A stretch of 64,000 nucleotides of DNA from a virus (IMGVR_UViG_3300037400_002261:1-64000), one strand, 5' to 3'; numbered from the stretch's first letter, positions 30,405 to 39,171 are shown. The notes: a model not told the origin generated them from the letters alone. Numbers and translations: made by a program.

Positions 30405-33122
30405 TTGGGTGAATACGGATGGAAAATAAAAAACTTTAAAGCGGCAACTGTATATGGTAAAAACATCGGCATACGAGATAGATATGATTATACTGAAGCA
30501 ATGTTACATCATTCTCTATTTACTCGCTGGCTAAAAAATAACGGAATGCAAACCGACAAGAAGGATGAATCTACAAAAGATATTATCTGTATGGATTTTC
30601 AGTTTGGGCTTCGTAGTTATAAAGAAGAATTATCTCATTTAAAACAGATGCGGAAAGATGCTGGTGATAATACCGAGAAGCTTCAGCAAATAGATGAGAT
30701 TGAAGCAAAGGTTAACTCTAAAAAAGATTTATATAAAAAAATTAGTAAAGACCAAATTCGTAAAATATTTTACGAAGATGGAGTATCAATCACTTATTCT
30801 TATTTAGATAAAAAAACAGATGTGGTGATTTCAGAGACAATTCATTATAAGATGTTATATAGAAATCCGTCTAAAGCCAAACAGGGTTCTGTAATGTTTA
30901 TTCGTGAAGAACTGTATGACAAAGCATATGATTGGCTTACTATGGGAATTGGAAAACGTCTTCCTCATCATGGAGCGAAGATTGTGGAGATCTCCGCATA
31001 CGCTCCTCTCTCAACATCTGCAATAGAAAGAACTGTTCATATTGATATTGATGATGTGTTAATACTGAAAGATCAGGATAGTTATTTCAGGACAATTGCT
31101 GATATTGTCAGAGCGGAAGATTATGAAGTCACTTTGAAAAATGGCAAGAAAGAAATTAGAAAACGCTGCACTGTTCATAGGGAAGAAACAGATGTAAAAA
31201 ACACTTTATGGGATGGAATGGCTTTAATAGAAACAAGTATTATGCCAGATGAATGTAATGGTATGGCATTGCTAAGAAATCATTTTTTTAAGGCATGTGC
31301 TTTTAGAACTAGAATACAAGAATTTATTCAGGATTATTGTTTAGAAAATGATATAGACTATGATACATATACAATAGAGGATATTTTTGGAATAAAGCAT
31401 CTCGCAAAGAATGTCAAGATAATAACTACTGATAATGCTATTAAGTGGAAAAAATTTGTTGATTTAATGGGCGGTACTCTTCCACTGGCTTATGATTATT
31501 GGTGTAATCGTGTTAATAAAGATGGCTCGATCTGGGGGATAGTAAAAACAGATCATCCTAGTAAACTTGGTAGCGTTCAGCAGATGAGCTATCAAATGAT
31601 TAATACTCTTCCGTGTGAAGAAAAAGATATCAGAGAGATAGCGCAAACAAGTATTAATTATGTTGAATTATTAAAATCTAATAATGATGAGTTTGAAAAA
31701 TTTCTTCGCAAGAATTCTACTGCTGTGAATCATTATGAAATGTTGGCAGATTTATATAGATGGAATCATGATTTCGAAAACAGTAAAATGTGGAAGGTTG
31801 ATAAATCTAAAATTATAAGTCAGTATGTCGCAAAATTGCGCAAGGGTAAGATAACAGTAAATGGTGATAATATAACTGTTTGTGGAAATCCATATGCCCT
31901 TTTACTTTATACTGTCGGAGAGGATTGGAATAATGACCCAACACTTCTTCCAGAAGAAGGAGTTATTCAAGTATATACCAAAAGATTTGATGATGGAGAA
32001 TATCTATGTGGTATTCGCAACCCCCACAATTCAGCAAATAATATTGGTTATTTTAAAAATGTTCACCATCCATTAATGGAAGAATATTTTGAATTTAGTA
32101 ATAATATAATGGCTGTCAATTGTATCCATACTGATATACAGTCACGTATGAATGGCGAAGATTTTGATTCAGATTTTAATTTTGTTACAAATCAACCGCA
32201 GATGGTTGAAGCTGCCAGAATAGCTTATAGAGATTATCCTACTGTTGTTAATGAAGTTGGCGAAAGCGGTTTATCATATAATAACACAATGTCTGAATAT
32301 GCGAGAATGGACTCAAATATGCAGAGTGCGCAGAAAGCTATAGGTGGAGCAAGTGATACTGCTCAGTTGTCTCAAAGTTATTATTGGTCTAAGGTTGATA
32401 AAAAAGAATTTGATGATGATTGTAAGCAATATTATGAGAATACTGTAATACTGGCTGTTGCAGCTCAGTTGGCAATAGATGGATGTAAGAGAGTTTATGA
32501 GGTTGATGTTAACGATGATATTGCCAGAATAAGATCTCAGCCGTGTATGAAAAAAGCGAATGATTATCCGAATTTTATGAGGTGGACTCATGAGATTCCA
32601 GTTACTAAAAATGGTAAAGAAAGACCTCAAGAGGATATTGCTAAAGATAAGGATAGAGTTAAAAGAAGAATAGATGAAAGTATTGTATGTCCTATGAACT
32701 GGTTACAAAACTGTTTAGATAAAATACAAGGTTCTGAAAAAAAAGATATCGTAGATACTCAAAAATATTTTATCAATTTTCCAGGATGGGCTAATAATCG
32801 GCAAATGTCCAAGATACGTCAGTTGATTGAAGATTATGATGGTTATACAAAAAGAATTATGTTATTAATGAAAGATGATAATGATAATGATGATTATATT
32901 AATTTGTTAGGATTAAAAACGGAAGAAGTTCTATCTGAATTAAAAAAATATAAATTATCAAAATATACAATGAATAGATTAATAGGTAGTGTATTAGGAA
33001 TTGATTTAGGTGTTGGTAATCAATATAAATATCACCAATCTTCAAAGTATGTAAGAAAGACTTTAAATTTAATGTATCGAACTAACAGAGAATTATTCTT
33101 ACAAAATTTTATTAAAGCTTAA
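30405..33122 (+). CDS. yonO: YonO-like single-subunit DNA-dependent RNA polymerase
   Basis: 905 aa; catalytic-loop variant RMNGEDFDSD (DFDSD at 32160-32174), RNPH, RNHFFKACAF, AQLAID; followed by HU as in SPbeta yonO-yonN. Confidence 0.8.
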   Translation: MGEYGWKIKNFKAATVYGKNIGIRDRYDYTEAMLHHSLFTRWLKNNGMQTDKKDESTKDIICMDFQFGLRSYKEELSHLKQMRKDAGDNTEKLQQIDEIEAKVNSKKDLYKKISKDQIRKIFYEDGVSITYSYLDKKTDVVISETIHYKMLYRNPSKAKQGSVMFIREELYDKAYDWLTMGIGKRLPHHGAKIVEISAYAPLSTSAIERTVHIDIDDVLILKDQDSYFRTIADIVRAEDYEVTLKNGKKEIRKRCTVHREETDVKNTLWDGMALIETSIMPDECNGMALLRNHFFKACAFRTRIQEFIQDYCLENDIDYDTYTIEDIFGIKHLAKNVKIITTDNAIKWKKFVDLMGGTLPLAYDYWCNRVNKDGSIWGIVKTDHPSKLGSVQQMSYQMINTLPCEEKDIREIAQTSINYVELLKSNNDEFEKFLRKNSTAVNHYEMLADLYRWNHDFENSKMWKVDKSKIISQYVAKLRKGKITVNGDNITVCGNPYALLLYTVGEDWNNDPTLLPEEGVIQVYTKRFDDGEYLCGIRNPHNSANNIGYFKNVHHPLMEEYFEFSNNIMAVNCIHTDIQSRMNGEDFDSDFNFVTNQPQMVEAARIAYRDYPTVVNEVGESGLSYNNTMSEYARMDSNMQSAQKAIGGASDTAQLSQSYYWSKVDKKEFDDDCKQYYENTVILAVAAQLAIDGCKRVYEVDVNDDIARIRSQPCMKKANDYPNFMRWTHEIPVTKNGKERPQEDIAKDKDRVKRRIDESIVCPMNWLQNCLDKIQGSEKKDIVDTQKYFINFPGWANNRQMSKIRQLIEDYDGYTKRIMLLMKDDNDNDDYINLLGLKTEEVLSELKKYKLSKYTMNRLIGSVLGIDLGVGNQYKYHQSSKYVRKTLNLMYRTNRELFLQNFIKA

Positions 33123-33381
33123 AATACTTAAGGGTATATGATTTGAATTTATTATTTTTCAATAAATGCTTGCATTTTCGTATTTTTATTAAATTCTTTT
33201 ATATGAGGGAAAAGCGATATTTTCTTATCTACCGCTATTGCCGAGTGCGGTATAAATAAATATGGGTTCATGAATAAAAGCTAATAATACCTTTGGATGT
33301 GGGTTTAGGTTAAACATCTATTGCGCAATTTCTATATAAAAAATTATTAAACTATTACTTGATTAAAAGGAGAAAAAGGAT

Positions 33382-33654
33382 ATGAAGAAAATTGATTTTA
33401 TTAAGTTATTTGCAGAAAAGGCTAATATTACCCAGAAGGATGCAAGAGAAATTAGTGCAGCTTATTGGGATGCTATTTTTGAAGCTATGAAGGACGAAGA
33501 TGGAGTGTCTCCTGTTCAGGGTGTTAAGTTTGTAACAGTACACAAGGATTCACGTACTGCAAGAAATCCGCTTACTGGAGAATCAATCGTAGTTCCTGAG
33601 AAGGATGTGCCGAAGGTTAAGTTCGGTGCTAGTGTAAAAGATATGTTTAAGTAA
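33382..33654 (+). CDS. HU-like histone-like DNA-binding protein (YonN-like)
   Basis: RTARNPLTGESI.VP...VPKVK.G signature. Confidence 0.9.
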   Translation: MKKIDFIKLFAEKANITQKDAREISAAYWDAIFEAMKDEDGVSPVQGVKFVTVHKDSRTARNPLTGESIVVPEKDVPKVKFGASVKDMFK

Positions 33655-33757
33655 TTAGGTTGTTTAAGTAATTTGAATATTACTGACTACTCCAACCTCT
33701 CCCCAAACTGGGGTAGTCAGATAATATATTATTCCCAGTATAACTGCTGGGATTAAT

Positions 33758-33828
33758 GAGTATGTGGTGTAATCAGGTAGCACAGGTCATTTGGGATGAT
33801 CAGGAGGCGTTCAAATCGCACATATTCA
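33758..33828 (+). tRNA. tRNA-Pro(TGG) with an imperfect T-stem
   Basis: Acceptor GAGTATG/CATATTC, D-stem GTGT/GCAC, anticodon arm GGTCA-TT TGG GA-TGATC, TTCAAAT loop. Confidence 0.65.
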
Positions 33829-33872
33829 ACTATCAGTGATGATGCTGATTACAAAACTAAAATACAATTTTT

Positions 33873-33899
33873 AGGAGAGTCTCCCCACTCTCCTTTTTT
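33873..33899 (+). terminator. Intrinsic terminator
   Basis: AGGAGAGT/ACTCTCCT stem plus T run. Confidence 0.6.
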
Positions 33900-38348: not shown

Positions 38349-38475
38349 AAGGTGTGAAATATGAAAGATATAGATTTATATTGTTGTTATTCAATAAAAC
38401 TTAGAAATTATTTAACAAATAATGATTTTAGTAAATATGAATTACCAAATATTAAATTTTAAGGAGAAGATAAAT

Positions 38476-39021
38476 ATGGAAAAGATTAATGTGTTAAGCA
38501 TTGAACATTTAGAAGATATCATGATTGAAAATTTAGAGGAAAATAAATCAGTGTCTTTGGTTTCAGATTTTGAAACTGTTTGGGAAATTGCTATGGATTT
38601 TCATAGGTATGAGGATGTTGAATTTGAGTATGTTGATATCAATACCGACTATGACAAGGAGTATTATCTTACTCTCATGATGGATGATGATAACAATGCT
38701 ACTATGGCAATTGAAAAAGCATTTTGTGAAGAAATTGATAATTATCTTGCCACAGATGGTATTGTATTTATTGAAGATACTGTTGATTATAAATATCTTA
38801 CTGATGTGAAAAATAATAAGCATTTAAAAGATGGCGATTTTACACCTATTATCTTTACATTTGATACAGATGATGAAAAAGATAATAAATGTGATGATTG
38901 TTTGTTTGGAAAAGAAGTTACTGATAGTCAGGTACGATTTTTTGTTCCAGCTTGTATGGATGAATTAGTTAAGGCTATTGATAACTTAATGGATAAATAT
39001 ATTGTGGATAATTATAGATAA
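38476..39021 (+). CDS. Acidic hypothetical protein
   Basis: Start MEKINV after AAGGAG. Confidence 0.75.
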   Translation: MEKINVLSIEHLEDIMIENLEENKSVSLVSDFETVWEIAMDFHRYEDVEFEYVDINTDYDKEYYLTLMMDDDNNATMAIEKAFCEEIDNYLATDGIVFIEDTVDYKYLTDVKNNKHLKDGDFTPIIFTFDTDDEKDNKCDDCLFGKEVTDSQVRFFVPACMDELVKAIDNLMDKYIVDNYR

Positions 39022-39066
39022 CTTCCCGTCTCCACTCTCCCACAGGTTATCTATATTATATTTATT

Positions 39067-39096
39067 GCCGCTGACATTTTGTTGGCGGCTTGTTTT
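39067..39096 (+). terminator. Terminator-like hairpin just upstream of the tRNA cluster
   Basis: GCCGCTGACA/TGTTGGCGGC plus TTGTTTT. Confidence 0.5.
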
Positions 39097-39098
39097 AT

Positions 39099-39171
39099 AG
39101 GGGTGTGGTGTAATGGTTCAGCACAGGTGGCTCTAACCCACTTGATCTGGGTTCGAATCCTAGCACCCCCG
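39099..39171 (+). tRNA. Amber suppressor tRNA, anticodon CTA (reads UAG; Gln-type)
   Basis: AGGGGTG/CACCCCC acceptor, G73; D-arm GTGT-AATGGTTCA-GCAC; anticodon arm GGTGG-CT CTA AC-CCACT (CTA at 39133-39135); T-arm CTGGG-TTCGAAT-CCTAG. Confidence 0.93.

Follow-up and report, generated by a model that had tools for sequence, protein, structure and literature searches.

The YonO protein of phage SPbeta is made after induction and transcribes the late genes (Forrest et al. 2017, PMC5467207). It lacks the flap domain required for hairpin-dependent termination, and no promoter sequence is known for it (PMC5467207). Gut phages that use code 15, in which TAG is read as glutamine, have been described in several studies (Borges et al., bioRxiv 10.1101/2021.08.26.457843; Peters et al., PMC9523058; phAss-1 group, PMC10607447). 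The term 'RNA polymerase' is absent from the full text of the Borges preprint and of the phAss-1 paper. The way in which the code switch is timed in alternatively coded phages has yet to be explained (Borges et al.; Kienbeck et al. 2024).

We analyzed a window of 64,000 nucleotides, which is the first 64 kb of a 107-kb virus contig from IMG/VR (estimated completeness 54%). The source is a large phage of the cattle gut (rumen type) whose layout is SPbeta-like and whose late genes are probably under two separate controls. An earlier, sequence-only reading of this DNA regarded each of its elements as known separately, and we came to the same view: the YonO-type polymerase and the Borges-type code switch are each real and each already known, and the window is a variant of the known code switch. 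Its main protein-coding features are as follows.

25914..39021, plus strand: TAG-free early/middle module of 15 ORFs (Pfam and PHROG assignments)
30405..33122, plus strand: YonO-family two-barrel single-subunit RNA polymerase of 905 aa (TTG start, no TAG)
32160..32174, plus strand: codons of the metal-binding loop D586-F-D-S-D590, aligned to DNDGD of YonO
33382..33654, plus strand: HU-type DNA-binding protein (Pfam Bac_DNA_binding, E 4e-18)
39420..64000, continuing to 107 kb in the record, plus strand: late module in which TAG encodes Gln (PHROG hits)

The TAG-free module encodes, in this order, a helicase-like protein, a ParB-like protein, a 346-aa unknown protein, an HNH endonuclease, the RNA polymerase, HU, a 65-aa ORF, PIN-PhoH, a 108-aa ORF, a ClpP-like protease, three small ORFs, an exonuclease and a 199-aa unknown protein. 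The order of polymerase and HU is that of yonO and yonN in the SPbeta annotation, and it was found in many relatives. The late module includes genes for a GIY-YIG endonuclease, the large terminase, the portal and virion proteins (PHROG). A full-length terminase with 66% identity was located on a 460-kb contig, and one source named it a Blautia faecis protein, which hints at a host with the standard code. The relatives point to Lachnospiraceae-type hosts, and the phage is not a known Bacillus prophage.

We compared the profile of the 905-aa family (54 sequences) with SPbeta YonO using hhalign and observed clear homology (probability 99.15, E 3.8e-19, 517 aligned columns), which pairwise BLASTP of the two proteins also detected (E 1e-6). 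Alignments with homologues of the 905-aa protein begin at residue 1. The catalytic loop reads NGEDFDSDFNF, and D586, D588 and D590 were invariant in 54 diverse homologues. The loop had been noted as DFDSD instead of DFDGD; this is correct, and DxDSD is the consensus of the family across these homologues. The AF2 model of the protein was of high quality (pLDDT 91.6, pTM 0.88), and its Foldseek matches were RDR2 (E 2.5e-14), QDE-1, gp62 of Thermus phage P74, gp64 of P32 and crAss gp66. The protein also matched PHROG 8308, while Pfam and NCBIfam had no model for it and nothing relevant came up when PDB sequences were searched, either with the protein or with the profile. The YonO profile match, the invariant Asp triad, the fold and the synteny with HU thus uphold the proposal of a YonO-type two-barrel polymerase. 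In view of its homology with SPbeta YonO and the synteny of polymerase, HU and virion genes, the most likely role of this enzyme is transcription of the long late operon. The analysis broadens the YonO family, which now takes in over a thousand clusters (50% identity) of phage proteins from gut and rumen, and it adds a confident structural model and the identification of DxDSD as the consensus metal loop.

The plus-strand genes between 25.9 and 39.0 kb had been said to lack internal TAG and to be readable under the standard code, and this was confirmed. There was no in-frame TAG in 4063 codons of the 15 ORFs at 25914-39021, while approximately 40 were expected from the late-gene rate (Poisson P(0) of approximately 3e-18). 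These ORFs end in TAA (11) or TGA (4) and never in TAG. They contain 142 off-frame TAG trinucleotides, therefore base composition is not the cause. Most of the minus-strand ORFs called at 1-25 kb were also without TAG. The late genes contained 74 TAG in 7457 codons within the window and 297 in 21252 across the record. At the seven TAG columns of TerL, Q occupied 616 of 840 homologue cells, and at five of these columns at least 96 of 120 were Q. The change from the TAG-free module to the late module with TAG as Gln lies exactly at the suppressor tRNA. We infer that late proteins stay incomplete until the suppressor accumulates, which is the code switch published by Borges et al.

The tRNA genes and RNA structures of this region are listed below.

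30341..30370, plus strand: hairpin just 5' of the polymerase gene (-18.4 kcal/mol, poor U-tract)
33757..33830, plus strand: tRNA-Pro(UGG)-like gene (ARAGORN; below the Rfam gathering score)
33873-33894, plus strand: terminator-like hairpin 3' of the tRNA-Pro(UGG)-like gene
36309..36335, plus strand: terminator-like hairpin 3' of the ClpP-like gene (-15.1 kcal/mol, U6 tail)
39067..39098, plus strand: terminator-like hairpin with UUGUUUUAU, adjoining the tRNA cluster
39099..39171, plus strand: amber suppressor tRNA(CUA), Gln-type, class I (ARAGORN; Rfam tRNA, 57.5 bits)
39180..39331, plus strand: tRNA-Thr(UGU), then tRNA-Asn(GUU) (ARAGORN, Rfam)
39337..39409, plus strand: conserved three-way-junction RNA and U-run at the end of the tRNA cluster (-30.4 kcal/mol, z -5.8)

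The suppressor, which has an A1-C72 mismatch and G73, lies 6 kb downstream of the polymerase gene. It had been placed behind a terminator-like hairpin, and we located this hairpin at 39067-39089 (10 pairs, -15.2 kcal/mol, z -4.65); the last base of its UUGUUUUAU tail is 39098, and the tRNA begins at 39099. A hairpin and T-run were present in the matching position in L003, L004, L006, L008, L013 and L016, with differing stem sequences. The three-way-junction RNA showed compensatory changes across four copies in three phages. It had no Rfam match, and no Rfam ribozyme was found for its segment 39337-39403 at E up to 1. We also considered this segment as a hammerhead and as an HDV-like ribozyme, by hand and with Rfam; both fitted poorly, and the predicted fold is a three-way junction.

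We then consider where transcription may enter the module. Two copies of one promoter-like repeat are present.

25554..25595, plus strand: promoter-like repeat ATTAAATACTnnTTGACA... 5' of the helicase-like gene (consensus match only)
27162-27203, plus strand: second copy of the repeat (TTGACA-17-TATTAT, 11/12)

This repeat is a candidate host sigma-A entry to the plus-strand module. The polymerase gene sits behind a hairpin with no promoter between them, therefore transcription would have to pass module hairpins before any phage polymerase exists. The 45-nt spacer 5' of the 39067 hairpin contained neither a -35 nor an extended -10 element, and in L003 the hairpin follows the preceding stop codon after only 15 nt. 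The sigma-70-type promoter scan was at chance level (106 found, 105 expected), as was the scan of the L011 spacer, therefore these scans give no basis for assigning a polymerase. One candidate for a phage-specific promoter motif was dropped. A C-rich CTCTCCC box followed by TATATTAT precedes the two tRNA loci (at 33.70 and 39.03 kb) and is similar to stretches 3' of HU in L006 and L029; it was unconserved 5' of the boundary cluster in L003, L006, L008 and L016 and is partly hairpin sequence. The TTTACTACTTTTGA repeats lie solely within the divergent region (25.66-25.83 kb). Four bovine metatranscriptome runs yielded only low-depth contigs of 150-390 nt, which say nothing about the tRNAs or where transcripts end; these were commoner over 33-39 kb than over 25-33 kb, with DNA carry-over possible, and they do not enter the argument.

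In-frame TAG was present within the aligned polymerase gene in 6 of 14 clearly recoded relatives (12 in L011, 14 in L025, 2 in L003, and 1 each in L021, L024 and L063); L003 is a relative with 74% identity. In L011 and L025 the TAG density is approximately that of late genes, and six TAG positions are common to both. The DFDSD loop was intact in the three polymerases that were checked (L011, L025, L003). L011 carries its suppressor in the same syntenic boundary position, and its helicase and ParB genes are TAG-free. In the remaining 8 of 14 recoded relatives the polymerase gene was TAG-free, as in the window phage. ARAGORN detected no CTA tRNA at the boundary cluster of the close relatives L006/L007 and L008, and, among close relatives with complete genomes, no suppressor tRNA was detected in the whole of G003 or over the initial 95 kb of G004. 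The polymerase and recoding are not tied to each other, as the YonO family is also common in standard-code phages (SPbeta, Enterocloster phages and most of the distant loci fetched).

We slightly favour the explanation that the two late controls are parallel requirements, with the suppressor obtained by read-through and no cascade from polymerase to suppressor. One control would be the YonO-family polymerase, which, translated by the host from a standard-code module, would transcribe the late operon; the other would be the Gln-type amber suppressor at the boundary, which would gate the completion of late proteins. The tRNA cluster is probably produced by read-through from the upstream TAG-free genes, because there is no recognisable promoter and a conserved hairpin and U-run abut its first base. 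The suppressor would be expressible without newly made phage polymerase, as the polymerase gene is itself dependent on the suppressor in relatives. Its simplest source would be host RNA polymerase passing leaky terminators, to which the phage polymerase may add later. The sequence-only reading had proposed an AND gate, with the suppressor transcribed by the phage polymerase and late translation unlocked by the suppressor in turn. One part of it can be kept: it is plausible that late proteins depend on late mRNA and on the suppressor alike. The serial step found no support: TAG in the polymerase gene of some recoded relatives means that the suppressor must come first in those phages, and in L011 the suppressor is syntenic.

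Such a serial arrangement, in which terminators stop the host enzyme and only a terminator-insensitive phage polymerase reaches the tRNAs and thereby gates late translation, seems rather unlikely to us. The polymerase and all upstream plus-strand module genes are TAG-free, and no promoter is recognisable for the tRNAs, which three good hairpin/U-tract terminators (33873, 36309, 39067) separate from the polymerase gene. As YonO is without the flap domain (PMC5467207), the tRNAs would be far easier to reach for a terminator-insensitive phage polymerase than for the host enzyme. The start site of YonO in SPbeta is approximately 0.3-0.45 kb 3' of the HU gene (bracketed solely by published primers), so by synteny a unit from 33.9 kb that includes the suppressor could be polymerase-dependent. 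Against this, two of the six TAG-containing polymerase genes are amber-written at late-gene density, L011 with its TAG-rich polymerase keeps the suppressor at the same boundary, the layout is not conserved (no CTA tRNA in the clusters of L006/L007 and L008, in G003 or in G004 up to 95 kb), and the polymerase family is widespread among standard-code phages. It is equally doubtful, though it can be imagined, that terminators act as a filter for the YonO-type polymerase here, with the wiring reversed in L011 and L025, where the amber code would gate the polymerase. If true, one phage family would contain both orders of the transcription/translation cascade.

We consider it very unlikely that the polymerase enters with the virion and transcribes early genes, like those of N4 or crAss-like phages; gene position and TAG content would then say nothing on timing. 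Such delivery would reconcile the TAG-rich L011 and L025 polymerases with a polymerase-dependent suppressor, and the fold resembles that of packaged crAss phi14:2 gp66. However, the closest characterised homologue, YonO, is a post-induction, late-gene enzyme (PMC5467207), the gene lies among replication-type genes outside the virion block, and at 905 aa the protein is without the large extra domains of the packaged giants. That the protein is a QDE-1/RDR-type RNA-dependent RNA polymerase and no transcriptase is barely credible: RDR2 and QDE-1 top the Foldseek list and Enterocloster phage PMBT24 has a homologue annotated as such, but identity to RDRs is just 10-12%, YonO, to which the profile homology is direct (E 3.8e-19), is DNA-dependent by experiment (PMC5467207), and the yonO-yonN synteny is common to SPbeta and the window.

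Returning to the parallel requirements that we favour, this phage family offers a tractable comparison between TAG-free polymerase genes and amber-written ones, the latter at approximately late-gene density. Comparing its members could show whether the code switch lies upstream or downstream of the RNA polymerase switch, or whether the two run in parallel.

In summary, we compared the locus with four known systems. The theta (HDV-like) ribozymes (Kienbeck et al. 2024, PMC10879173) resemble it in having a conserved structured RNA immediately 3' of the last tRNA of a suppressor-containing cluster; the element at 39337-39403 differs as a predicted three-way junction with an outer helix and U-run that shows no nested P1/P2 order. 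CrAss-like code-15 phages (phi14:2 gp66, PDB 6VR4) also combine a two-barrel polymerase and amber recoding in one genome. However, gp66 is a giant virion-packaged early enzyme (2166 residues in 6VR4), whereas the window enzyme is YonO-sized, encoded in the middle module and presumably a late transcriptase.

SPbeta shares with the window a single-chain two-barrel polymerase (839 aa, compared with 905 aa here), 517-column homology that includes the Asp-triad loop, the R-x-P-H segment and the second-barrel Lys, and the order of polymerase, HU-type gene and virion genes on the same strand. It differs in its loop (DNDGD there, DFDSD here), in its late genes, which are not amber-recoded, and in the region between HU and the virion genes, where the window has a 5.4-kb TAG-free block (PIN-PhoH, ClpP-like protease, exonuclease) and the tRNA cluster. 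The code-15 gut phages likewise have early/replication genes that fit the standard code, a suppressor tRNA(CUA), TAG concentrated in structural/late genes and aligned to Gln, and a proposed role in delaying late protein synthesis. Unlike them, the phage studied here has a single sharp switch point marked by the tRNA cluster and encodes a YonO-type polymerase.

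We analyzed the arrangement of genes in the virus record, which is 107,285 bp long with an estimated completeness of 54% and whose first 64 kb form the window. Near-identical DNA was found in bovine gut metagenomes of many studies. The polymerase, the TAG-free block and the suppressor are real and well defined, and the main features are as follows.

1-25 kb, minus strand: block 1, short genes
25.9-39.0 kb, plus strand: block 2 (middle), encoding helicase-like and ParB-like proteins, a 346-aa unknown protein, an HNH endonuclease, the 905-aa polymerase (30405-33122), HU-type and PIN-PhoH proteins, a ClpP-like protease, an exonuclease and several small or unknown ORFs
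39067-39089, plus strand: hairpin of 10 pairs, -15.2 kcal/mol
39099-39171, plus strand: suppressor tRNA(CUA), on which ARAGORN and Rfam agree
39.4 kb to the record end, plus strand: block 3 (late), encoding, with TAG read as sense, a GIY-YIG endonuclease, large terminase, portal and virion proteins

The sequence-only reading had described the middle-block plus-strand genes as lacking internal TAG, and the counts bear this out. We detected no in-frame TAG in the 4063 codons of the 15 middle-block ORFs, which end in 11 TAA, 4 TGA and no TAG. Late genes within the window carried 74 TAG in 7457 codons, a rate at which the middle block should hold approximately 40 (P approximately 3e-18). Base composition was ruled out as the cause, because the same ORFs hold 142 off-frame TAG trinucleotides. 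At the 7 TAG codons of the terminase, glutamine accounted for 616 of 840 homologue residues; therefore TAG is read as glutamine.

A single ORF of 8310 aa with 164 in-frame TAG begins at position 63815 of the window (record 63815-88747) and is open only if TAG is sense; next come ORFs with 8-24 TAG and lengths of 1430, 1847 and 978 aa. There are three homing-endonuclease-type genes, one HNH and two GIY-YIG (29510-30313, 39420-40235 and 45573-46748). The two in the late block have 1-2 in-frame TAG each, and one of them, directly 3' of the tRNA cluster, is the first recoded gene. The 0.8-kb divergent region separating the minus and plus blocks contains three copies, two of them exact, of TTTACTACTTTT(GA) at 25662-25831, a candidate operator or origin-type repeat.

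The 905-aa protein had no match among Pfam models, NCBIfam models or PDB sequences, and matched PHROG 8308, which is without assigned function. Its family is very large (1160 representative clusters, E up to 0.001). When 54 diverse members were aligned, D586, D588 and D590 were invariant (DFDSD in the window, DxDSD in the family consensus), as were R538 and P540 of the R-N-P-H segment and D692 and K695 of AIDxxKR. The family profile matched SPbeta YonO with a probability of 99.15 (E 3.8e-19, 517 columns), pairing DFDSD with YonO DNDGD. The AlphaFold model was confident (pLDDT 91.6, pTM 0.88), and its best structural matches were all two-barrel polymerases: RDR2, QDE-1, Thermus phage P74 gp62, P32 gp64 and crAss phi14:2 gp66. 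The earlier identification as a YonO-type polymerase was thus correct, given the profile match, the two-barrel structural matches and the HU synteny. By homology with YonO (PMC5467207), the protein is most likely a DNA-dependent late transcriptase.

The polymerase gene is uninterrupted in the window and interrupted at two sites in many relatives, one right ahead of the DFDSD loop, at residues 584-589, and one at residues 688/689, just before AIDxxKR. Both insertions in the related locus L021 (11714-11956 and 12291-12607) matched a group I intron in Rfam, with 90.8 and 76.2 bits, and alignment gaps were also seen in L006, L007, L008, L010, L015, L016, L017, L019, L022, L026, L040, L042 and L045. 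Some insertions, 1.2-1.3 kb long, contain an ORF. These interruptions explain many database proteins of approximately 590 aa and 305 aa.

The suppressor had also been placed behind a terminator-like hairpin, as we observed: the hairpin tail, UUGUUUUAU, stops 1 base short of the tRNA, which has an A1-C72 mismatch and G73. A promoter would not fit between hairpin and tRNA cluster, and -35 and extended -10 elements were absent from the 45-nt spacer 5' of the hairpin. A hairpin with a T-run likewise adjoins the first boundary tRNA in six related loci (L003, L004, L006, L008, L013, L016), with differing stem sequences; in L003 it lies only 15 nt past the preceding stop codon. Because the hairpin abuts the cluster in the window and relatives and leaves neither room nor elements for a promoter, the tRNAs are most likely transcribed by read-through out of the upstream TAG-free genes.

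Immediately 3' of the last tRNA of a cluster there is a conserved three-way-junction RNA of approximately 65 nt with a U-run after it, in these copies.

Window, 39337-39409: three-way-junction RNA
L003, 14160-14240: three-way-junction RNA
L003, 15033-15115: three-way-junction RNA
L016, 13793-13875: three-way-junction RNA

Compensatory changes were present among the four copies in the outer helix and first hairpin, and the stretches GGAAACAT, GGAGTA and ATGTGAGTG were invariant. It had no Rfam match, and the order of its helices is that of neither a hammerhead nor an HDV-like RNA. ARAGORN also reported a tRNA-Pro(UGG) at 33757-33830, which stayed under the tRNA gathering score when the window was scanned with Rfam; its 5' half and the 5' half of the suppressor share 80% identity. 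Relatives have tRNA-Pro(UGG) at the equivalent place, with Rfam tRNA matches in L003, L007 and L008.

The tRNA(CUA) of the window and of L011 are 73-75 nt long, class I and Gln-like. Two close relatives have a 92-nt tRNA(CUA) of class II shape with a long variable arm (L003, 13991-14082; L004, 16000-16091). In L013 a suppressor-type CTA tRNA with a long variable arm (19442-19770), located after the hairpin that also precedes the L004 suppressor, has its anticodon loop split between CUCU and AAAACCG by a group I intron (19469-19681; Rfam 56 bits, E 2.8e-13) and was missed by ARAGORN. Since TAG in late genes of L013 and L006 still aligned mainly with Gln, it appears that suppressors of two unrelated types carry out one reassignment. 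Pairs of tRNA-like genes of approximately 120 nt, which contain a hairpin insertion and the repeated motif (T)ACAGCAA(A), were found in the complete relative G003 (159805-160050, L090/L091); L008 (13530-13680) and L016 (7850-8000) have similar TAGACAC...ACAGCAA...GTGTCTA elements just 3' of their HU genes. In L025 five tRNA-like genes form a cluster (6518-7571) 5' of the polymerase gene, which is rich in TAG, and ARAGORN gave three of them two-base anticodons, that is, six-base anticodon loops. The 22.7-kb fetched stretch of L025 contained no CTA tRNA, despite 14 TAG in the polymerase gene.

We fetched 80 related loci from IMG/VR. Close relatives have in common the order helicase, ParB, polymerase, HU, tRNA-Pro, PhoH, ClpP, exonuclease, tRNA cluster and TAG-rich late genes. 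Of the loci, 14 were clearly recoded (at least one gene with 5 or more in-frame TAG). A CTA tRNA near the polymerase was found in only 3 of the 80 by ARAGORN and in a fourth, the intron-split one of L013, from Rfam. In two complete relatives, G003 over its whole genome and G004 over its first 95 kb, none was detected. Polymerases of this family are also frequent in phages without recoding, among them SPbeta, Enterocloster phages (no recoding was reported for PMBT10, PMC10607447) and most more distant loci.

The polymerase gene was TAG-free in 8 of the 14 recoded loci, like that of the window phage, and contained TAG inside the aligned region in 6 (L011, 12; L025, 14; L003, 2; L021, L024 and L063, 1 each). 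The L003 polymerase and the window protein share 74% identity, and the NGEDFDSDFNF loop was intact in L011, L025 and L003, the three checked. Six TAG positions coincide between L011 and L025, and so represent maintained sense codons rather than decay. In L011 the helicase and ParB genes are TAG-free, and a tRNA(CUA) lies at the same boundary, 4.5 kb 3' of the polymerase. Because of its 12 amber codons, this polymerase could not be synthesized before suppression is active, and therefore the suppressor in such phages must be made without a fresh supply of the phage enzyme. Any cascade there would lead from suppressor to polymerase.

We lean slightly towards suppressor and polymerase acting as two separate late inputs, with transcription begun by the host enzyme; it is plausible that late proteins need both in parallel. 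Strong sigma-A-like sites on the plus strand were limited to the two copies of one element (25.57 and 27.19 kb), and metatranscriptome contigs were short and sparse. The serial cascade of the sequence-only reading, in which the polymerase makes the suppressor and so unlocks late translation, seems unlikely: it was unsupported here and contradicted by the TAG-containing polymerase genes of relatives. In its favor, three good hairpin/U-tract terminators lie between polymerase gene and tRNAs (33873, 36309 and 39067). Also in its favor, YonO has no flap domain, on which hairpin-dependent termination relies, and in SPbeta it reads the late genes as a single operon (PMC5467207). The SPbeta start site, bracketed by published primers, is approximately 0.3-0.45 kb 3' of yonN, and by synteny a late unit here could start after HU and include the suppressor. 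However, the polymerase gene is itself behind a hairpin with no promoter between, so hairpins of this module are passed before phage polymerase exists.

The coupling had been put forward as not known to be described. "RNA polymerase" did not turn up in term searches of the full text of the Borges preprint and the phAss-1 paper, and the literature searched held no paper joining YonO with phage stop-codon recoding; the coupling is thus not yet described in that literature. In summary, the combination, above all in relatives with an amber-coded polymerase, is useful new material for the question of what sets off the code switch. Polymerase and suppressor are both of known kinds, and an HU gene comes after the polymerase gene here just as yonN comes after yonO in SPbeta.
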